NCBI GenBank assembly: GCA_024571205.1
Contig: GCA_024571205.1_4523.1
Direction: 5' to 3' (one strand)
DNA: 64,000 bases
From: a phage
The notes beneath the pieces are model-generated. The model worked only from the letters and a program-made list of their open reading frames with translations. It was not told the origin of the DNA and ran no database searches. Below, piece by piece: positions 7,196-58,411 of the stretch. The first letter of the stretch is position 1. Each line of letters starts with the position of its first letter. The position numbers were made by a program, and so were the translations under genes.

Positions 7196-7221
7196 AGACC
7201 TATCAACTACTGGAGAACAAA

Positions 7222-7539
7222 ATGAAAACCATCGATTGTAAAGCAGAATTTAAGATTTTTTATCACGGTTCAAGTAGTTCAGCTAAAATCGAAAACATGC
7301 TTTGTCCTCCTGAAGAAACAGGAGTTCTGTCTGAAACCGGACGTAAGAAAAACTTGAATCGTGTATTCTTTACTGAAGATATCGGTTTAGCAAAGATTTA
7401 CGCAGGACGAGCAGCACGCTCTTATGGAGGTGAACCACGTCTCTATCGAGTAATTTCTCCGGTAGATGTAGTTCAAATGAATGATACTAAAGGTGCTAGC
7501 GTATACCACGCAACCTGGGCCTTCTGCGAGGAAATATGA
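7222..7539 (+). CDS. hypothetical protein, 105 aa
   Basis: ORF following a promoter; RBS GGAGAAC inside the downstream repeat arm. Confidence 0.6.
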   Translation: MKTIDCKAEFKIFYHGSSSSAKIENMLCPPEETGVLSETGRKKNLNRVFFTEDIGLAKIYAGRAARSYGGEPRLYRVISPVDVVQMNDTKGASVYHATWAFCEEI

Positions 7540-7748
7540 ACATTGTAGTATTTAAACCATCAACATACGAATTTGCATCAACTACACAATGGAAAGCTCT
7601 TATTCAGGAAGGATGGGAACTAATGATGGACTGCGAAGCATCTGAAAAGTTTCCACACGGCAAAGTGGACTTCGTTAAATTTGCTGTACGTCCGACCAAA
7701 CGTCAAATTCGTCAAGAAAAACGCAAATTTCGCAAAAGTTTAAAATAA
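7536..7748 (+). CDS. hypothetical protein, 70 aa, basic C-terminus
   Basis: ATGA overlap with upstream gene; C-terminal RQIRQEKRKFRKSLK. Confidence 0.5.
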   Translation: MNIVVFKPSTYEFASTTQWKALIQEGWELMMDCEASEKFPHGKVDFVKFAVRPTKRQIRQEKRKFRKSLK

Positions 7749-15466: not shown

Positions 15467-16213
15467 ATGTTATCAAATAATAAAATTAACAAAATCAATC
15501 GTCGTCTTGACCACACCAGAGCTTCTGCGAAGAGACGCTCTAAGGATTTTAACTTAGACTTTAATTACCTTAAAAACATTCTTGATCAAAAGGTCTGCGC
15601 TTACTCAGGTGAATCTTTCAATAACTCTGTTGAAGGTGAGAAATTATCCTTAGAACGTTTTGATAACGATATCGGCTACATTAAAGGTAATGTTATCCCA
15701 GTTAAGAAAAAATATAACACGGCTCGTTCCGATTTAACATTAGAAGAACTTATCGAGAAACGTGATGCCATTGCAAGGCGTATCGCTAATCCTTCTGCCC
15801 GTAAAGTAGAGAAACTTAATCTCGACGAGAAGAAATGGGCCCAAATCAAAAAGGTTTATGATACTATTTTAAAAATCCGAGCAAAACGTGAAAATCGTGT
15901 TAAGCATATGACGAACATGATGAAAAATCAACCTTTATCTAACGAATCTAAACTTAGAATTGTTGCTTTGAAAGCACGCATTAATGGCTCGCATCAAGCA
16001 GAAGGCCATGAACTTACTAAACTCAACGTTCTTCTTAAAGGCTCTGACTGGAAAACTAAAACTAAATTAACTGACGCTGAATCGCTTTTCGATACATATG
16101 ATAAAGTTATCCAAGGTCTGCAACGTTTTGAAAAGATTGGTTTCATTGGTAAATTAAAATTGAAACGTGGCCTACCACTTAGCGCATCATTATTCCAACT
16201 GATTAAAGGTTAA
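15467..16213 (+). CDS. hypothetical basic protein, 248 aa (srd position)
   Basis: Lys/Arg-rich; lies between the mod genes and dda, where T4 has srd. Confidence 0.55.
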   Translation: MLSNNKINKINRRLDHTRASAKRRSKDFNLDFNYLKNILDQKVCAYSGESFNNSVEGEKLSLERFDNDIGYIKGNVIPVKKKYNTARSDLTLEELIEKRDAIARRIANPSARKVEKLNLDEKKWAQIKKVYDTILKIRAKRENRVKHMTNMMKNQPLSNESKLRIVALKARINGSHQAEGHELTKLNVLLKGSDWKTKTKLTDAESLFDTYDKVIQGLQRFEKIGFIGKLKLKRGLPLSASLFQLIKG

Positions 16214-16215
16214 TT

Positions 16216-16527
16216 ATGGTTTATGTATATGCAATAGTTTATCGAGATATGGAAGGATTTACTGTCCCAGTTCCACTTGATGAACATCGTCCTGCAGTAT
16301 TTTTTAGAAAGGATATTGCAGATAAAGTTTTCGATACTTTGAAAACACAGTATAAAACAGATTTAAAAATGGGAGTTCTAAGAATGGTCGAAACTCCGCG
16401 TAAGTTCTGGTTTAATAAGCTTGAAATGAAACACATTAAACTAGATGCGGAGACGCAAAGATTGTATCAACGAATTCTAGATACTGGCCGTATTGTTAGT
16501 ATTCCAATTGCAGGGACTTTACGATGA
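16216..16527 (+). CDS. hypothetical protein, 103 aa (dda.1 position)
   Basis: ORF directly upstream of and overlapping dda. Confidence 0.55.
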   Translation: MVYVYAIVYRDMEGFTVPVPLDEHRPAVFFRKDIADKVFDTLKTQYKTDLKMGVLRMVETPRKFWFNKLEMKHIKLDAETQRLYQRILDTGRIVSIPIAGTLR

Positions 16528-17837
16528 CATTTGATGATTTGACTGAAGGCCAGAAAAACGCCTTCAACGTTGTTATGAAAGCTATTAAAGAAAAGAAACA
16601 TCACGTAACTATTAACGGGCCTGCTGGTACAGGTAAAACAACCCTTACTAGATTCATCGTTGAAGCCCTTATTTCTGCCGGAGAATCAGGTATTATTTTA
16701 GCAGCCCCTACACATGCTGCTAAAAAGGTTCTAAGCAAACTTGCGGGTCAAGAAGCATCGACTATTCATAGCATTCTTAAAATCAACCCAACTACATACG
16801 AAGAAAACGTATTATTTGAACAGAAAAAGGTTCCAGACTTAGCCTTGTGTCGTGTACTGTTATTTGATGAAGCATCAATGTGTGACCGTTCTCTGTTTAA
16901 AATAATGTTAGCTAGTATCCCTAAATGGTGCACAGTAATTGGAATTGGTGACCGATGCCAGATTCGTCCGGTAGACCCAGGCGAATCCACTGCGTATCTA
17001 AGTCCTTTCTTCACTCACAAAGACTTCGTGCAATGCAACCTTACAGAAGTTAAACGTAGCAATGCACCAATTATTGATGTTGCGACTGATATTCGTAATG
17101 GCAAATGGATTTATGATAAAGTAGTTGATGGGCACGGTGTTCATGGATATACAGACCTTAAATCGTATATGATGAACTATTTTAATGTCGTTAAAACTCC
17201 TGAAGACCTTTTCGAAAATCGAATGATGGCATTCACAAATAAGTCGGTGGACAAGTTAAATTCAATTATTCGCCGAAAACTTCTTGAAACAGAAAAGCCA
17301 TTTATTAAAGACGAAGTCATTGTTCTACAAGAGCCGTTTACCAAGACGTATAAGCTAGATGGCAAAAATATGACCGAAATGCTTTTCAATAACGGGCAAT
17401 TCGTTCGTATTCGAGATGCTGTAGAAACGTCTACATTCGTTAAAGCACGTGGTGTTTCAGGCGAATATATGATACGATACTGGAATCTTACAGTAGAAAC
17501 ATATGGGGATGATGAAGAATACGTCCGCGAGGATATAAAGGTTATTTCTTCCGAAGAAGAGCTTTATAAATTCAATTTGTTTTTGGCTAAGACCGCAGAA
17601 ACATACAAATTCTGGAATAAAGGTGGTAAAGCTCCATGGAGTAAATTCTGGGATGCTAAACGCATGTTCACTAAGGTGAAGGCGCTACCTGTATCAACCT
17701 TCCATAAGGCTCAGGGTATGTCTGTTGACACGGCCTTTGTTTATACACCGTGTATCCATTATGCCGATTCAGAATTAGCTAAACAGCTATTGTATGTCGG
17801 CACAACTCGTGGTCGTTTTGACGTCCATTTTATTTGA
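16524..17837 (+). CDS. dda: Dda SF1 DNA helicase
   Basis: Walker A GPAGTGKTT; 437 aa; strong match to recalled T4 Dda. Confidence 0.9.
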   Translation: MTFDDLTEGQKNAFNVVMKAIKEKKHHVTINGPAGTGKTTLTRFIVEALISAGESGIILAAPTHAAKKVLSKLAGQEASTIHSILKINPTTYEENVLFEQKKVPDLALCRVLLFDEASMCDRSLFKIMLASIPKWCTVIGIGDRCQIRPVDPGESTAYLSPFFTHKDFVQCNLTEVKRSNAPIIDVATDIRNGKWIYDKVVDGHGVHGYTDLKSYMMNYFNVVKTPEDLFENRMMAFTNKSVDKLNSIIRRKLLETEKPFIKDEVIVLQEPFTKTYKLDGKNMTEMLFNNGQFVRIRDAVETSTFVKARGVSGEYMIRYWNLTVETYGDDEEYVREDIKVISSEEELYKFNLFLAKTAETYKFWNKGGKAPWSKFWDAKRMFTKVKALPVSTFHKAQGMSVDTAFVYTPCIHYADSELAKQLLYVGTTRGRFDVHFI

Positions 17838-17846
17838 GAGAAAATT

Positions 17847-18524
17847 ATGAGCACTGATGTTATTATAGACTTTGAAACATTCGGCAATACATCAAAAGCG
17901 GCTGTTATTGACCTTGCGGTTATTGCATATAATTCAGACCCTGAAGTTGTTGAATCATTCGAAGAACTTGTTCAACGAGGTAAGCGAATTAAATTTAATT
18001 TAGCTTCTCAAAAAGGGAAGCGAGTTTTCGCTAAATCCACCATGAAATGGTGGAAAGAACAATCGGCTGAAGCACGTAAAAACTTGGCCCCATCTGAAGA
18101 CGATGTCACTACGCTTGATGGCATTAAAATCTTTTTAGATTATTGTCGAGCTAATAAAGTTGACCAATGGAAATCACAAATGTGGTGCCGTGGTATGAGT
18201 TTTGACTTCCCAATCTTGGTCGATTTGATTCGTGACCTCTATCGTGATGAAGGTGTTCTTGAACCAGATATTGATACTGATAAATTAGAACCGGTTAAAT
18301 TCTGGGCTCAACGCGATATTCGTACGGCAATCGAAGCTTACTCGTTGACGCGAGGATTAAGTATGTGTCCGTTACCAATGGGTACGCTAAAAGGATTCGT
18401 TGCCCATGATAGTGTTCATGATTGTGCTAAAGATATTTTGATGTTAAAATATGCTCAGCGTTATGCGCTTGGCCTTGAAGATGTCCCTGAGAATCCTGAC
18501 CCGTTAAGTGTAAAACAGCGATAA
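17847..18524 (+). CDS. dexA: DexA exonuclease A (DnaQ-like 3'-5' exonuclease)
   Basis: 225 aa; IIDFETFG exonuclease motif I; position after dda. Confidence 0.85.
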   Translation: MSTDVIIDFETFGNTSKAAVIDLAVIAYNSDPEVVESFEELVQRGKRIKFNLASQKGKRVFAKSTMKWWKEQSAEARKNLAPSEDDVTTLDGIKIFLDYCRANKVDQWKSQMWCRGMSFDFPILVDLIRDLYRDEGVLEPDIDTDKLEPVKFWAQRDIRTAIEAYSLTRGLSMCPLPMGTLKGFVAHDSVHDCAKDILMLKYAQRYALGLEDVPENPDPLSVKQR

Positions 18525-18529
18525 AATCA

Positions 18530-18559
18530 GTTTACAACCAAGGATGGTTGGAGTATAAT
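18530..18559 (+). promoter_or_regulatory. T4-early-type promoter
   Basis: GTTTAC 18530, 18-nt spacer, tataat 18554-18559. Confidence 0.6.
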
Positions 18560-18590
18560 CTTTCTATCTTAACCAAACAGGAAAAACATT

Positions 18591-19085
18591 ATGAATATCA
18601 ATACTACGGCTACTTATATCCTGAAAGACGAAAAACAAATCAACTGGTACAGTGCTTCAGTGCGAGCTTATGAAAAGTTTTGCGAAATTTTAGGTGCCAC
18701 TCAAGGTAATAGTTTCACTATTGTTAACTTCATCAAACAAGTTGAAGGCCCTTGGTTATTCTTAGAAATTAAAAATTCATATGGTACAATTTCTACCACC
18801 GCCCTTCCAAGCACCGACTTTGAACTGTTGATTGAAGAAGTAGAACCCGTTAAAGATATCTGTATTGATATGGATATCGCTTGTATGTACGGTACTCTGA
18901 TTAAGCCTATTGAGCCTACCGATTTGTTGTGTAAATATGTTTCAATTCGACGCCCATTCGCTGGTCCAGTAAATGGATGGGTGACTGATCAGTGGATTGA
19001 AGACGGTGTTGAACTTCTGAACGTTGTTCATGCAGGTGATTTTAGTGTAGTTCCACGTAGTGCTGTGGTTAATATCCTTAATTAA
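18591..19085 (+). CDS. hypothetical protein, 164 aa, paralog family member A
   Basis: C-terminal GWVTDQWIEDGVELLNVVHAGDFSVV shared with the next two ORFs. Confidence 0.6.
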   Translation: MNINTTATYILKDEKQINWYSASVRAYEKFCEILGATQGNSFTIVNFIKQVEGPWLFLEIKNSYGTISTTALPSTDFELLIEEVEPVKDICIDMDIACMYGTLIKPIEPTDLLCKYVSIRRPFAGPVNGWVTDQWIEDGVELLNVVHAGDFSVVPRSAVVNILN

Positions 19086-19086
19086 T

Positions 19087-19117
19087 GTTGTACATCCAAG
19101 GACGGATGGAGTATAAT
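19087..19117 (+). promoter_or_regulatory. T4-early-type promoter (variant -35)
   Basis: gttgtac, 18-nt spacer, tataat 19112-19117. Confidence 0.5.
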
Positions 19118-19146
19118 GAATTCAACTTAAACAAAGAGAGAAAATT

Positions 19147-19632
19147 ATGAATCTTGGTATTATTGGTGAAATCGTTCGCGTATCTAACAAATCTCGTTCT
19201 AAAGCAGCAGGAAAATTGGTCGAAGTTGTAAGTATTCAACTTAAAGAAGGTGTTAAAGATGAAGATTCTGAGGTAAAAGTTCGTATTATTCCTAGTCTTG
19301 GGTCAATGGAAACCCAATTTGCTTATGTTCGTGCAAAGTTCTTGGAAACTCCTGTGAGTGGTGCTTTTGCTTCAAGAGAAAAAGTTGAATCCACAGAGCC
19401 TAATGCACAGTTCAAATGGGCCTTGTGTAAAGGTGTTGAATTCCAGACTGATAAAGAATTTGACTTCATCGATGAATACGGTTATCCAAGCAAAACTGAT
19501 ACTATGTGTGGCTTCATTAGTGACCAATGGGTAGAAGATGGTGAAAAGTTATACAATATCGTATTCTTAGGTGACTTCCGAGTTGTTAAAGAATCTGAAA
19601 TCACTCGCTATGTGTCTCCTCGTAAAGCTTAA
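19147..19632 (+). CDS. hypothetical protein, 161 aa, paralog family member B
   Basis: Shares N-terminal SRSKAAGKLVEV and C-terminal GFISDQWVEDGEKLYNIVFLGDF with member C. Confidence 0.65.
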   Translation: MNLGIIGEIVRVSNKSRSKAAGKLVEVVSIQLKEGVKDEDSEVKVRIIPSLGSMETQFAYVRAKFLETPVSGAFASREKVESTEPNAQFKWALCKGVEFQTDKEFDFIDEYGYPSKTDTMCGFISDQWVEDGEKLYNIVFLGDFRVVKESEITRYVSPRKA

Positions 19633-19641
19633 GGAATTATT

Positions 19642-20061
19642 ATGAATATTGTAAATCTCTCTACAGGTGATTACGTATATGTATCTGTTGCTTCTCGCTC
19701 TAAAGTTGCCGGGAAGTTGGTTGAAGTTCTTTCTGTGAGCGATCCGGTTTTTGGACGTAATGAAGTTAAAGTTCGTGACGCCGATGGTAACATTGGCTAT
19801 GTCTCAGGCCAATTCATTGAACCGGAAGAAAAAGCGTTCAAATGGGGACTATGCAGATCAGTTTCTGTTGAAAAAGACCATGAATTCACTATTGCTGCGG
19901 CAACTGATGGAACGCCATGGAAAACTAAGCAAATTGCTGGTTTTATTAGCGACCGTTGGGTAGAAGATGGTGTTAAGCTTTATAACATCGTTTTCGCTGG
20001 ACAGTTCATGGTAGTTCCTGAACTCCAAATTAAAAAATATAGCCCAGCTGCTTTCGCATAA
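19642..20061 (+). CDS. hypothetical protein, 139 aa, paralog family member C
   Basis: SRSKVAGKLVEV, GFISDRWVEDGVKLYNIVFAGQF. Confidence 0.65.
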   Translation: MNIVNLSTGDYVYVSVASRSKVAGKLVEVLSVSDPVFGRNEVKVRDADGNIGYVSGQFIEPEEKAFKWGLCRSVSVEKDHEFTIAAATDGTPWKTKQIAGFISDRWVEDGVKLYNIVFAGQFMVVPELQIKKYSPAAFA

Positions 20062-20065
20062 AGTT

Positions 20066-20094
20066 GTTTACTTCTCCTCTGGTTTTGATATTAT
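20066..20094 (+). promoter_or_regulatory. T4-early-type promoter with perfect flanking inverted repeat
   Basis: GTTTAC 20066-20071, 17-nt spacer, tattat 20089-20094; arms ttctcctctggtt (20072-20084) and aaccagaggagaa (20104-20116), the latter containing the RBS. Confidence 0.6.
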
Positions 20095-20120
20095 AACCAT
20101 ATTAACCAGAGGAGAATAAT

Positions 20121-20645
20121 ATGTTAGTTTACCGCGTAGAACGTAGTTTTTGTACTCAACGTGAATCATTACCAGGAATTGCTATCGAAGACGGTAAAGC
20201 CGTCAGAATTTGGGAAACCTCTTGGAATAAAGAACCACGCTCACCTTACGGTTGGTCTGGCACTGACAACTCTGAAGAAACATGGGAGTTCCTTGATAAA
20301 CATGGAATAATCTCAGGTAACTTCTACCATCACGGCGACAACTATAATGTCCCTAATCGTCCTACAGTAAATGAAGACAAACTTCTTGAACAAAATATCT
20401 TAAGATACCATAGAATTGAGTACACATTTGAATTGAGTGAAGATTGGGCTCAAGGGTTCTATTTTGGATTTGAAAGCGTTGACGCGGTTTATGCATGGTT
20501 TGATGACCAGGTGGATGTTGAACTCTTGAAAGCTAAAGGATACTACATCGCGGTCTATGAAGCACCTGATTTCATCCTCGGAAGTTGTCAATTAATGTTT
20601 AGACGTTCATTGGCAGAACAAGTTGATTTTATTTTGCTAAAATGA
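20121..20645 (+). CDS. hypothetical protein, 174 aa
   Basis: ORF after a promoter; RBS GAGGAG. Confidence 0.6.
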   Translation: MLVYRVERSFCTQRESLPGIAIEDGKAVRIWETSWNKEPRSPYGWSGTDNSEETWEFLDKHGIISGNFYHHGDNYNVPNRPTVNEDKLLEQNILRYHRIEYTFELSEDWAQGFYFGFESVDAVYAWFDDQVDVELLKAKGYYIAVYEAPDFILGSCQLMFRRSLAEQVDFILLK

Positions 20646-20674
20646 TGTACAACAACTATGGTCTATGATACTAT
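20645..20674 (+). promoter_or_regulatory. T4-early-type promoter (variant -35)
   Basis: atgtac, 18-nt spacer, tactat; inverted repeat ggtctat / atagacc around the -10. Confidence 0.5.
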
Positions 20675-20702
20675 AGACCTATCAAAACAAGAGGAGAATA
20701 TT

Positions 20703-20930
20703 ATGAAACGTCAAATCATTAAAAACGTAACTACTGATTCAAACATCGATGAGTTTGAAGATGTTCTGTTTAATCCTGATTTAGTTGTTGTACAGAAAAA
20801 CTGGACTGAATTTTTATGCTACACTGAAGTGGTTTACGTTTACGAAAAACTCGGTGATGAAATGCCTATCTATGGTATCTTCCGTGAAATCACTGAAAAC
20901 GGTACAACTTATTGGAAGGAAACTTACTAA
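20703..20930 (+). CDS. hypothetical protein, 75 aa
   Basis: Start trimmed to ATG 20703 after RBS GAGGAGAA (the track start lies inside the promoter). Confidence 0.55.
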
Positions 20931-21334
20931 TGGCTAATAAATTCCGCGTTAACTCATGGTACCAATTTAAAGATAAACGTGCCCAAGAAGAGTTTATTAA
21001 AAACCACACTGATAATGGGATTTATGCACGACGTCTTGGCATGGAACCATTTAAAGTATTAGATGTTGACCATCTTGGACGACCTACTAAAATTGTGACA
21101 TCTACTGGCATGGTTGGATACGCAACTGGTGGTGATATTCTTGATGAAAACTTTATCTGGCTCTCTACTAGTGAAGCAGAGTTTTTTGATGAAGTTGGAA
21201 ATCCATATCAAGCATCTGAAGAGCAAGAACAGATAGAAGATTTCACAGAATTCCCAGTAATGAAAGTTACTATCGAAAATAACGACCAGGCATGGTCTTT
21301 GTATCAAATGTTGAAAGCACATTTTAAGGAATAA
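20930..21334 (+). CDS. hypothetical protein, 134 aa
   Basis: TAATG overlap start at 20930. Confidence 0.55.
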
Positions 21335-21336
21335 TA

Positions 21337-21516
21337 ATGCCGTTATATGACTATAAATGTCAATCTGAAGATTGTGGCCATGAATATGAAAAAATTAAAA
21401 GGATTTCTGAACGAGAAAACGATGTTTGCCCTGAATGTCATCGTCTGTCTACTCGTCGGGTTTCTGCTCCTAAACATGTGAATGGTGGTTTTTACGACTT
21501 ACTTAAGAAGGGATAA
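21337..21516 (+). CDS. zinc-ribbon small protein, 59 aa
   Basis: YDYKCQSEDCGHEYE...CPECH: two CxxC pairs; below the ORF-track cutoff. Confidence 0.5.
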   Translation: MPLYDYKCQSEDCGHEYEKIKRISERENDVCPECHRLSTRRVSAPKHVNGGFYDLLKKG

Positions 21517-21518
21517 TT

Positions 21519-21941
21519 ATGGCTTTTAAAGGTTTTGAAGTTGGTAAGAAATATCGTATTATCAAAGGTCAAGAAGATAATTTCTTGAGAATTCTTAATA
21601 CAACTGGTAAACGTCTTAACACTACTCTGCATACAGTTTTATTATCAAGAGATTTTATTGTAGAAGAGATGATTGGCTACGGTGTTTCAATGATTGCCGC
21701 TGAAACCGATGGACCTGGACGTACAATCATTAGTATGCAAGGTGATATTCTGATTTATGGTGCAGAATTTAAATTCTTTGAAGAAGTTCCGGAATCAGAT
21801 ACAGCTGTCGATTTCAAAAAAGGCTCTATAGAATTTGTTGATGGTTCAGTGATCGTATCAGGTGATGTGGTCATTACGGTTAAAAGTGAACAAGGGCGTT
21901 TGGCTGCAATTGATGCACTTCAGAAAATTAAATTTAAATAA
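21519..21941 (+). CDS. hypothetical protein, 140 aa
   Basis: ORF ending at a strong terminator. Confidence 0.6.
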   Translation: MAFKGFEVGKKYRIIKGQEDNFLRILNTTGKRLNTTLHTVLLSRDFIVEEMIGYGVSMIAAETDGPGRTIISMQGDILIYGAEFKFFEEVPESDTAVDFKKGSIEFVDGSVIVSGDVVITVKSEQGRLAAIDALQKIKFK

Positions 21942-21959
21942 GGGCTTCGGCCCTTTTTG
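21941..21959 (+). terminator. intrinsic terminator (UUCG tetraloop)
   Basis: aGGGCttcgGCCC followed by TTTTT. Confidence 0.75.
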
Positions 21960-22004
21960 CTTTAGATTTCGGATGATAGAATACCTTCATAACGAGGAGA
22001 CAAC

Positions 22005-23822
22005 ATGATTAAAAATGAAATTAAGGTATTGTCAGATGTAGAACATATTAAGAAACGTAGTGGTATGTATATTGGTTCTTCTGCTAAAGAAGCCCACGAG
22101 CGTTTTTTGTTTGGTAAATATCAACAAGTTGAATATGTTCCTGGCCTGGTTAAATTAATCGATGAGATTATTGACAACTCGGTTGATGAAGCTATTCGTA
22201 CATCATTTAAGTTTGCAAATAAAATTGATGTGCAAATTAAAAATAATCAAGTTTCGGTGGAAGATAACGGACGTGGTATTCCTCAAGGTTTAGTTACCGA
22301 CCAAACAGGTGAACAAATTCCTGGGCCTGTAGCAGCCTGGACTATTCCAAAGGCCGGTGGTAACTTTGGTGATGACTCTGAACGCAAGACTGGTGGTATG
22401 AACGGCGTCGGGAGTAGTTTAACTAATATCTTCTCTACGTTGTTTACAGGCATCACGTCAGATGGCGAAAATGAAATCACTGTTAACTGTTCAAACGGAA
22501 TGGAAAACAAATCATGGTCTTCTAAGAAATCTAAAGGTAAAGGCACTAAAGTAATCTTCACTCCTGATTTCACTTCATTTGAAGAGCATAATTTATCTCA
22601 AATTTATTTAGATATTACTTTAGATCGACTTCAAACATTGGCAGTCGTTTATCCTGATATCAAGTTCACATTTAATGGTAAAAAGGTCGATGGTAATTTT
22701 AAACGATTTGCTAAACAATTTGGTGAAGATAACATCATTCAAGAAAATGATAAAGTCTCTATAGCATTCACAACATCACCAGATGGCTTCCGTCATTTAA
22801 CTTATGTGAATAACATCCATACTAAAAATGGTGGTCATCATGTTGAATGTGTAATGGATGATATCTGCGAACATCTTTTGCCAGGTATTAAAAAGAAATA
22901 TAAGGGTATTGAAGTCACTAAAGCTCGTGTTAAAGAATGCCTCACAATGTTGATGTTTATTCGAGACATGAGCAACATGCGTTTTGATTCTCAGACTAAA
23001 GAACGTTTAACGTCAACGTATGGTGATATTCGTAATCATATCCAATTAGATGCTAAGAAAATTGCCCAGGCACTTCTTAAAAACGAAGCCTTGATTATGC
23101 CTATTGTTGAAGCAGCATTAGCTCGTAAATTGGCAGCAGAAAAGGCTGCAGAAACTAAAGCAGCTAAAAAGGCAACTAAAGCTAAGGTTCATAAGCATAT
23201 TAAAGCTAACCAATGTGGTAAAGATGCAGATACGACATTGTTCTTAACAGAAGGTGATTCGGCAATTGGATATCTCATTGATGTTCGTGACCGTGAACTA
23301 CACGGTGGATTCCCATTACGTGGTAAGGTGATGAATAGCTGGGGTATGTCATATGCTGATATGATGAAGAACAAAGAGTTATTCGATATCTGTGCTATCA
23401 CAGGTCTTATTCTTGGTGAAAAGGCAGAGAATACGAACTATCGTAATATTGCAATTATGACCGATGCCGATCATGACGGTCTTGGAAGTATCTATCCGGC
23501 TTTGCTTGCTTTCTTTAGTAATTGGCCTGAATTGTTTGAACAAGGACGTATTCGCTTTGTTAAAACACCTGTAATTATTGCACAAATTGGCAAAACTCAA
23601 AAATGGTTTTATACTGTAGCTGAGTATGAAGAAGTTAAAGATACACTGCCTAAGCATAGTATTCGATACATCAAGGGATTAGGCTCCCTTGAAAAGTCAG
23701 AGTATCGTGAAATGATTCAGAACCCTGTGTACGACGTAGTTAAACTTCCTGAAAATTGGAAAGAACTCTTTGAAATGTTGTTGGGTGATGATTCAGAACT
23801 TCGTAAAGAATGGATGTCCTAA
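22005..23822 (+). CDS. 39: DNA topoisomerase II large (ATPase) subunit, fused gene 39 (39 plus 60 equivalent)
   Basis: 605 aa; GHKL ATPase and TOPRIM motifs; single uninterrupted ORF. Confidence 0.9.
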   Translation: MIKNEIKVLSDVEHIKKRSGMYIGSSAKEAHERFLFGKYQQVEYVPGLVKLIDEIIDNSVDEAIRTSFKFANKIDVQIKNNQVSVEDNGRGIPQGLVTDQTGEQIPGPVAAWTIPKAGGNFGDDSERKTGGMNGVGSSLTNIFSTLFTGITSDGENEITVNCSNGMENKSWSSKKSKGKGTKVIFTPDFTSFEEHNLSQIYLDITLDRLQTLAVVYPDIKFTFNGKKVDGNFKRFAKQFGEDNIIQENDKVSIAFTTSPDGFRHLTYVNNIHTKNGGHHVECVMDDICEHLLPGIKKKYKGIEVTKARVKECLTMLMFIRDMSNMRFDSQTKERLTSTYGDIRNHIQLDAKKIAQALLKNEALIMPIVEAALARKLAAEKAAETKAAKKATKAKVHKHIKANQCGKDADTTLFLTEGDSAIGYLIDVRDRELHGGFPLRGKVMNSWGMSYADMMKNKELFDICAITGLILGEKAENTNYRNIAIMTDADHDGLGSIYPALLAFFSNWPELFEQGRIRFVKTPVIIAQIGKTQKWFYTVAEYEEVKDTLPKHSIRYIKGLGSLEKSEYREMIQNPVYDVVKLPENWKELFEMLLGDDSELRKEWMS

Positions 23823-30037: not shown

Positions 30038-30067
30038 TTGTACAAACTCTTGAGAGCAGAGTATAAT
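30038..30067 (+). promoter_or_regulatory. T4-early-type promoter (variant -35) with inverted repeat
   Basis: ttgtac, 18-nt spacer, tataat 30062-30067; arms gagagca / tgctctc. Confidence 0.5.
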
Positions 30068-58382: not shown

Positions 58383-58411
58383 TTTACAAACTCTCAGGAG
58401 CAGAGTATAAT
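58382..58411 (+). promoter_or_regulatory. T4-early-type promoter with inverted repeat
   Basis: GTTTAC 58382, 18-nt spacer, tataat 58406-58411; arms ggagca / tgctcc. Confidence 0.55.

Follow-up and report, generated by a model that had tools for sequence, protein, structure and literature searches.

Phage T4 MotB is synthesized in abundance early in infection and binds tightly to DNA without sequence preference, accepting host DNA as well as modified T4 DNA (Patterson-West et al. 2018, 2021; PMC6070864, PMC7827196). It co-purifies with H-NS and StpA (PMC6070864) and alters the H-NS footprint, and it upregulates 75 host genes, of which roughly a third are H-NS-repressed (PMC6070864, PMC7827196). 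MotB is also toxic in E. coli and confers a two-fold burst-size benefit (PMC6070864, PMC7827196) and, as Son et al. (2021, Nucleic Acids Research) are cited in PMC12152347 (reference 23), it causes DNA compaction and lifts silencing by H-NS. Patterson-West et al. (2021) described a shared C-terminal domain (CTD) and differing N-terminal domains (NTDs) in MotB and MotB.1 (PMC7827196, section 3.2 and discussion), suggested that one of motB and motB.1 may be a duplicate of the other, and noted extra copies in several phages, RB69 having two motB genes, one motB.1 and a 29-amino-acid (aa) peptide (PMC7827196). MotB.1 has also been placed with GoF and Frd.2 in a group with an LSm-like fold, marked by an N-terminal bent antiparallel beta-sheet of five strands, a link that is structural only (Kim et al. 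2025, PMC12152347). Here, we analyze three consecutive open reading frames (ORF1, ORF2 and ORF3) that lie directly downstream of the dexA homologue in a 64-kb stretch of phage DNA, contig GCA_024571205.1_4523.1, the whole of which we refer to as the window and whose numbering is used for all positions. Judged by their sequences, these are the known motB.1, motB and second motB genes of RB69-like phages, and it is likely that they are early host-takeover genes that act through the distinct contributions of NTD and CTD outlined below.

The window belongs to an RB69-like member of Tevenvirinae (Mosigvirus), since its positions 17800-20700 match Escherichia phage PECP20 with 100% identity and Mosigviruses such as Shf125875, phiE142, a20, JS09 and RB69 with 93-97% identity. 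A preliminary description of this DNA had reported three ORFs of 164, 161 and 139 aa downstream of dexA, with coordinates and lengths that are exact, and had noted that all three share a C-terminal motif and that two share SRSK[AV]AGKLVEV at the N-terminus. The C-terminal motif contains one slip, in that its F..VV should read F.VV; once corrected, it has exactly three matches in a six-frame translation of the window, one per ORF. The N-terminal motif is present in ORF2 and ORF3 and not in ORF1. Pairwise BLASTP comparison, the formal check set in advance for these motifs, yielded significant E-values of 3e-10 for ORF1 and ORF2 (16 of 36 residues identical, 44%, at the C-terminus only), 2e-11 for ORF1 and ORF3, and 8e-30 for ORF2 and ORF3, which are 43% identical over their full length (153 columns). 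Chance similarity is ruled out by these values, which run from 1e-10 to 1e-30, together with matches to Pfam and PHROG families. The homology exceeds the motif that had been described and takes in the entire CTD of about 58-74 aa, which in the MotB-type copies is extended by an insertion of 15 residues when compared with the MotB.1 type.

The family matches distinguish ORF1 from the other two. Using Pfam profile PF17613 (MotB, "modifier of transcription"), for which the gathering cut-off is 25 bits, we obtained a score of 180 bits for ORF2 over the full length of the profile (positions 5-157 of 162) and 76.2 bits for ORF3, while ORF1 scored 35.3 bits through its residues 84-159, which align to no more of the profile than its C-terminal half (78-153). 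Likewise, ORF2 and ORF3 fall within phrog_1671 (MotB-like), with E-values of 7e-69 and 3.9e-51, respectively, and ORF1 matches phrog_2333 across residues 1-164 (E = 1.2e-82). Compared with T4 proteins, ORF2 shares 58% identity with MotB (E = 8e-60), to which ORF3 is more distantly related, and ORF1 shares 37% identity with MotB.1 over 134 residues (E = 4e-27). The two-domain layout of MotB, in which a KOW-like NTD with SRSKAAG is followed by the CTD, is found in ORF2 and ORF3 but not in ORF1, and it is because the NTD of ORF1 is unrelated that we file this protein as MotB.1 (Category 2 of Patterson-West et al. 2021) and not as MotB. The CTD residues of the MotB.1 subtype (PTDLLC ... ELLNVVH ... 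VVPRS) are invariant in the family alignment, ORF1 included.

In the annotations of RB69 and Shf125875, the same genes are called motB.1, motB, "RB69ORF010c similar to motB" and motB.2. The paralogy is therefore already known, both from the 2021 publication (PMC7827196) and from database annotation, and neither the domain swap nor the extra RB69 copy is new. The view that the function of these genes is unknown is likewise outdated, since ORF2 is the orthologue of the characterized DNA-binding, H-NS-modulating T4 MotB (PMC6070864, PMC7827196). We considered ORF4, the motB.2 homologue, as a fourth paralogue and rejected it, as it has no similarity to ORF1-3, has no PF17613 match and belongs to another PHROG (phrog_1106, E = 1e-45); it is 33% identical to T4 MotB.2 (E = 1e-15). 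A search of ORF1-4 against NCBIfam gave no match, and a scan of positions 16000-22500 against Rfam gave nothing at gathering score. The features of the locus are collected in Table 1.

Table 1. Genes, domains and promoter-like elements around the motB genes of the window, with pooled omega (dN/dS among Mosigvirus-type loci)
Feature	Position	Strand	Details	Pooled omega
dda	16524-17837	+	from the ORF list	0.021
dexA (exonuclease A) homologue	17847-18524	+	225 aa; exonuclease/DexA annotation in identical or near-identical phages	0.035
Promoter-like site 5' of ORF1	18531-18559	+	T4-early-type/sigma-70, TTTACA-N17-TATAAT, 11/12
Promoter-plus-leader direct repeat, copy 1	18533-18586	+	54 nucleotides (nt); 76% identity to 19091-19144
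ORF1, motB.1 orthologue	18591-19085	+	164 aa, isoelectric point (pI) 4.5; beta-rich NTD residues 1-85, linker 86-106, MotB-type CTD 107-164	0.14
Linker motif DMDIACMYGTLIKP of ORF1	18867-18908	+	residues 93-106; predicted local distance difference test score (pLDDT) <50
CTD of ORF1	18909-19082	+	MotB.1 subtype (PTDLLC ... ELLNVVH)
Promoter-like site 5' of ORF2	19089-19117	+	T4-early-type, TGTACA-N17-TATAAT, 10/12
Promoter-plus-leader direct repeat, copy 2	19091-19144	+	54 nt
ORF2, motB orthologue	19147-19632	+	161 aa; basic KOW-like NTD residues 1-67 (pI 9.2), disordered linker 68-87, CTD 88-161 (pI 4.7)	0.29
ORF3, second motB copy, RB69ORF010c type	19642-20061	+	139 aa; KOW-like NTD residues 1-60 with no net positive charge (pI 5.2), almost no linker, CTD 61-139	0.15
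Weaker promoter-like site 5' of ORF4	20067-20094	+	TTTACT-N16-TATTAT, 9/12; consensus match only
ORF4, motB.2 homologue	20121-20645	+	174 aa	0.10
cef				0.05
goF	20912-21334	+	matches phrog_622	0.13
RB69ORF005c-like ORF	21519-21941	+	140 aa; matches phrog_622	0.20
Fused topoisomerase II large-subunit gene	22005-23822	+	605 aa; 60plus39 type, as in RB69

To examine selection on these genes, ratios of nonsynonymous to synonymous divergence (dN/dS, omega) were calculated by the Nei-Gojobori method using orthologues from nine Mosigvirus-type loci besides that of the window and from two Tequatrovirus loci. We observed that all three copies are under purifying selection. The CTD is the most constrained part, with omega values of 0.043 in ORF1, 0.085 in ORF2 and 0.136 in ORF3, and the linkers (0.36 and 0.61) and the NTD of ORF2 (0.34) are looser than the CTD. 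The motB.2 homologue ORF4 is nearly invariant among Mosigviruses (dN 0.0075). Synonymous sites are saturated between ORF2 and ORF3, where dS is about 2.2, and are beyond correction between the CTDs of ORF1 and ORF2, indicating that the copies are old and that each has been maintained. Because ORF1 shares the CTD alone and has an unrelated NTD, the relationship is one of domain shuffling and not of simple amplification.

The cassette is reshuffled among genera of T4-like phages. The NTD of ORF2 is 79% identical to that of T4 MotB and 63% identical to that of RB69 MotB, while its CTD is 96% identical to that of RB69 MotB and 49% identical to that of T4 MotB; the high divergence of the ORF2 NTD thus arises from allele mosaicism, a T4-like NTD being joined to an RB69-like CTD. 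In addition, dS between the window and the Tequatrovirus CAM-21 is 0.18 for ORF1, 0.59 for ORF3 and 0.84 for ORF2, far below the values of 2.4-2.6 for the flanking dda, dexA and cef, which indicates that the cassette has been exchanged between genera. The family itself is widespread: a tblastn search with ORF3 found a MotB-family member in 768 phage records, of which 208 have an ORF3-type copy (at least 80% identity), and the ORF1 type occurs in Mosigvirus and some Tequatrovirus phages. Among 50 dexA-anchored IMG/VR loci, the number of CTD-bearing genes detected ranges from none to three, with several different N-terminal parts. A profile built from the three CTDs of the window had 28 matches among 1.84 billion cluster representatives, of which about 26 are genuine, and the genuine matches are all small phage proteins. 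Two large matches (570 and 842 aa), which would have placed the CTD outside T4-like phages, are repeat proteins matched through seven short stretches and are regarded as spurious.

The motB.1 genes of the two standard reference records differ from that of the window. In T4 record NC_000866 (complement 7221-7665), motB.1 encodes 119 aa and stops inside the CTD, the rest of which, EDGVELLNVVHAGEYSVVPRSAVVAILN, follows in another frame; the truncation is due to a single extra G at about 7304-7305 (complement). T4 records OZ209023 and KJ477685 (strain 147) have the same stretch minus one G and encode an intact 143-aa MotB.1, a form also represented by ADJ39729 from T4T, and the intact T4-type protein is found on 256 contigs, as compared with 2 for the truncated form. 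Compared with the window and other Mosigviruses, RB69 record AY303349 carries two single-T insertions, separated by about 50 nt, which split motB.1 into a 132-aa ORF and the 29-aa RB69ORF012c. Thus, the peptide listed as a "29-aa Category 3 peptide" (PMC7827196) is the displaced end of the CTD. The gene is an intact 164-aa motB.1 in eight other annotated Mosigvirus loci, and it is intact in the window. Both laboratory references are disrupted within the same stretch of roughly 60 nt, for which either sequencing errors or losses from laboratory stocks could account. Kim et al. (2025) worked with MotB.1 in its 13.8-kDa (119-aa) form, with no mention of a frameshift (PMC12152347), and because it was this form that was studied, their negative results may not apply to intact MotB.1. 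Experiments and structure predictions that start from the motB.1 of NC_000866 or AY303349 use a truncated protein.

These data bear on how the three copies came to lie side by side and whether all of them are functional. The preliminary description saw a locally amplified, diverging family, which would mean recent duplication followed by fast divergence under positive selection from host interaction. The tandem layout and the duplicated promoter-and-leader element would fit such a history, as would the omega values of ORF1-3 (0.14-0.29), which are 4-14 times those of dda and dexA (0.02-0.035), and the values of 0.34-0.61 for the linker and NTD of ORF2. Nonetheless, we consider it very improbable. 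The saturation of synonymous sites between paralogues is at odds with recent amplification, as is the presence of orthologues of each copy in many phages, other genera among them, and the high N-terminal dN of ORF2 stems from allele-type swapping. Moreover, every omega is below 1, so that positive selection is not indicated at the resolution used here, and the domain that the copies share is the most constrained part of them. What stands of the preliminary description is that the genes are tandem paralogues of the host-takeover class and that they evolve faster than their housekeeping neighbours, albeit under purifying selection; what does not stand is local amplification. Barely credible is the opposite idea that one or more copies are decaying, non-functional duplicates. 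It can draw on the dispensability of the region in T4, on the frameshifted motB.1 genes of the T4 and RB69 reference records and on the lack of a phenotype for the T4 motB.1 deletion. However, all three ORFs are intact in the window, motB.1 is an intact 164-aa gene in nine of ten Mosigvirus loci, RB69 being the exception, the truncated T4 form is greatly outnumbered by the intact one, and the omega values of ORF1-3, with strongly constrained CTDs, refute decay for the phage of the window.

We used AlphaFold2 with family alignments to predict the structures of ORF1 and ORF2, for which the mean pLDDT was 78.9 and 77.6, respectively. In this structure-prediction check, each protein is modeled as two beta-rich domains and a disordered or low-confidence linker (residues 86-106 in ORF1 and 70-86 in ORF2). 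The linker motif DMDIACMYGTLIKP of ORF1 is found in other CTD-bearing proteins at the extreme N-terminus or directly ahead of the PTDLLC start, and it is absent from the T4-type 143-aa MotB.1. Assignment of secondary structure by DSSP places a short helix between the last two strands in the NTD of ORF2 and in both CTDs. A helix between strands 4 and 5 is characteristic of SH3-like small barrels, while OB-folds have theirs between strands 3 and 4. The models suggest that in each of ORF1 and ORF2 a disordered linker connects two small beta-barrels of the SH3-like type. The position of the helix also calls into question, but does not refute, the published assignment of the MotB CTD to the cold-shock/OB family, an HHpred prediction that was accompanied by the view that either domain could bind DNA (PMC7827196). 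Searches of the Protein Data Bank (PDB) returned no solved MotB structure, giving one spurious match at E = 0.25 with a single protein and 0 matches at E<=10 with the CTD profile, and in a viral structure library the matches were confined to members of the family and further phage proteins with two barrels. Comparison by hhalign of the MotB.1 NTD with GoF, and of the CTD with the KOW domain, showed no significant link (probabilities of 0.3-4%).

The two domains differ in charge. The KOW-like NTD of MotB is basic throughout the family (pI 9.2-10.7), and the NTD of the ORF3 type has a pI of 5.2-6.5. The shared CTD is usually acidic, with a net charge of -2 to -6, and its invariant residues (D, Q, W, E, G, L, N and V) include none that is basic. 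MotB.1 proteins have a pI of about 4.5-6.8, most being below 5.4, and their CTDs mostly have a net charge of -3 to -5. As a whole protein, ORF2 has a pI of 5.2, as compared with 9.2 for T4 MotB, and it is acidic overall because its CTD is of the acidic RB69 type.

With the genes placed in the early, non-essential dexA-to-gene-39 region of Mosigvirus, orthology to T4 MotB suggests the following account, which we consider the best overall explanation of the cassette. ORF2 would be produced abundantly, beginning in the first minute of infection, and would coat host and phage DNA without sequence preference, compacting it. In doing so, it would change how H-NS and StpA are seated on the DNA, so that H-NS silencing would be relieved and phage yield would rise modestly. 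Since the NTD is basic and the CTD is acidic and without basic invariant residues, we favour the NTD as the DNA contact; charge and conservation make the conserved KOW-like domain the likelier candidate for this role. On the same grounds, the acidic, aromatic-rich small beta-barrel of the CTD may be a common module for self-association or partner binding, and association through it would supply the multivalency that MotB needs for compaction. ORF1, which is acidic throughout, and ORF3, the NTD of which is not basic, would then act via the partner or the complex of MotB and not as independent non-specific DNA binders.

Several points weigh against this account. The biochemistry is that of T4 MotB, and the difference in pI between T4 MotB and ORF2 means that the transfer of DNA binding is not safe. 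A DNA-independent contact between MotB and H-NS was not detected in published attempts (PMC7827196), which weakens the case for direct binding of H-NS by the CTD, and the CTD had earlier been predicted by HHpred to be an OB-fold (PMC7827196). In addition, deletion of T4 motB.1 has no phenotype (PMC12152347), although that allele was already truncated. If the CTD were an OB-fold, ORF1-3 might each bind nucleic acid independently through it, the NTDs adding a preference, with the KOW domain directed to DNA or RNA polymerase and the LSm-like NTD of MotB.1 to RNA. The HHpred assignment speaks for this, together with the published view that DNA binding is possible for either domain (PMC7827196), as do the description of the MotB.1 NTD as LSm-like (PMC12152347) and the fact that the CTD is the most conserved part. 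We find it rather improbable, given that the CTD is acidic in most members (net charge of -3 to -6), that its invariant residues are not basic, that the models place its helix between strands 4 and 5, the position found in SH3-like barrels, and that MotB.1 had no RNA effect in a reporter assay, though with the truncated T4 allele. A bolder version of the association account is that the CTD is not a DNA-binding OB-fold at all but an acidic, aromatic-rich, SH3/Tudor-like association barrel, and that MotB interacts with the second MotB and with MotB.1 in a single system; as a whole, we regard this proposal as unlikely, though not negligibly so. The basic KOW domain of MotB would then tether the complex to DNA, and the other paralogues would bring different N-terminal modules or act as modulators. 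A corollary is that the published negative results for T4 MotB.1, having come from a reference-strain allele without most of this domain, would say little about what MotB.1 does.

The promoter-like elements of the cassette would be compatible with early expression. As had been noted in the preliminary description, ORF1 and ORF2 each have a putative early promoter of their own, to judge from consensus matches, and ORF3 has no promoter-like site of its own. ORF3 is preceded by AAGGA and starts 9 nt past the stop codon of ORF2, a distance so short that the two are probably co-transcribed. The 54-nt direct repeat that includes the two candidate promoters spans the -35 region to the ribosome-binding site, and the spacer of the repeat, CCAAGGAnGGnTGGAG, is found nowhere else in the window, chance alone giving an expectation of 0 occurrences. 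The promoter-like motif of ORF1 and ORF2 is kept in all 10 of the 10 Mosigvirus-type loci fetched. A MotA-dependent middle promoter ahead of ORF1-3 was considered and dismissed, as there is no match to the MotA-box consensus in 18480-20120, and a terminator-like hairpin at 19298-19317 lies inside ORF2 and was given no weight. Elsewhere in the window, early-promoter-like sites at 30039-30067 and 58383-58411 have a different conserved spacer, AAACTCTnnGAGCAGAGTATAAT, which is similar to the promoter 5' of T4 motB. The existence of two spacer types among the promoter-like sites suggests that there are families of related promoter cassettes.

All genes across 16.5-22 kb of the window are on the + strand. 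The dexA homologue is the upstream anchor of the cluster and lies outside the MotB family, and ORF4 is followed by cef, goF, 39.2, the 140-aa ORF and then the fused topoisomerase gene. The MotB genes occupy the dexA-to-cef early-region placement seen in T4, RB69, Shf125875, CAM-21 and the 50 dexA-anchored loci. The gene order in the window is motB.1-motB-second motB-motB.2, as compared with motB.2-motB.1-motB in T4 and motB.2-motB.1-motB-second motB in CAM-21 and Ac3, such that the motB.2 homologue is 3' of the second motB in the window and 5' of motB.1 in the other three. The same early region contains a second diverged paralogue pair, goF and the 140-aa ORF, with the zinc-ribbon gene 39.2 between them; their N-terminal domains are related with an hhalign E-value of 8e-5 and a probability of 61%. 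Just 5' of the 605-aa topoisomerase gene, at 21958-21982, is a match to the MotA-box middle-promoter consensus, TGCTTTA-N12-TAGAAT, and ahead of this box is a GC-rich hairpin (21940-21955) with a terminator score on both strands.

MotB is among the few phage proteins shown to resemble nucleoid-associated proteins and to counter H-NS silencing, and the fact that RB69-like phages retain a trio of conserved genes, all with one C-terminal module in common, helps to frame how that module works. The practical by-products of the analysis are the recognition of frameshifted reference alleles and a suggestion as to which domain does what.

Set beside the described systems, the barrels of ORF1 and ORF2 are predicted to resemble SH3-like small barrels (Tudor, as in 53BP1, chromo, PWWP and KOW, as in Spt5/NusG) in having five strands, the last preceded by a short helix, and in occurring two in tandem, as in tandem Tudor or KOW-KOW arrangements. 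The PDB search with the CTD profile (0 matches at E<=10) showed no sequence similarity to these proteins, and the likeness is one of fold and not of membership in those families. With respect to the GoF/MotB.1/Frd.2 group, our profile comparison of the MotB.1 and GoF NTDs gave a probability of 4%, which is not significant. The promoter-like elements recall the promoter-stem-loop (PeSL) cassettes that T4-like phages carry (Arbiol et al. 2010; Comeau et al. 2014, PMC4122927), in which TTTACW-N17-TAYWAT elements are repeated around small ORFs of a plastic, non-essential kind of region; in the window, the two copies share 76% identity across their 54 nt, with a short dyad in the spacer of each. 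A terminator-like stem-loop is the defining part of a PeSL, and the likeness here rests on the promoter elements and the spacer dyad.

ORF1 resembles T4 MotB.1 (PHROG 2333) in its full-length phrog_2333 match and in a modeled beta-rich NTD followed by a flexible linker. It differs from the T4-type protein in having a 20-residue linker insert (DMDIACMYGTLIKP), and from the annotated 119-aa T4 MotB.1, the CTD of which is incomplete, in having a complete CTD. ORF2 shares with T4 MotB the KOW-like NTD and CTD, the early dexA-to-cef position and an early-type promoter-like site ahead of the gene, but it is mosaic and acidic overall. ORF3 has the same architecture as T4 MotB, at 38.5% identity, but lacks the linker and the positive charge of the NTD. 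The closest relatives of the cassette are those of RB69 (AY303349) and other Mosigviruses such as Shf125875, in which the same three genes are found in the same order at 93-97% nucleotide identity, followed by motB.2, cef, goF, 39.2, ORF005c and the fused gene 60plus39. Relative to the RB69 cassette, that of the window has an intact motB.1 and, in ORF2, a different, T4-like N-terminal allele.

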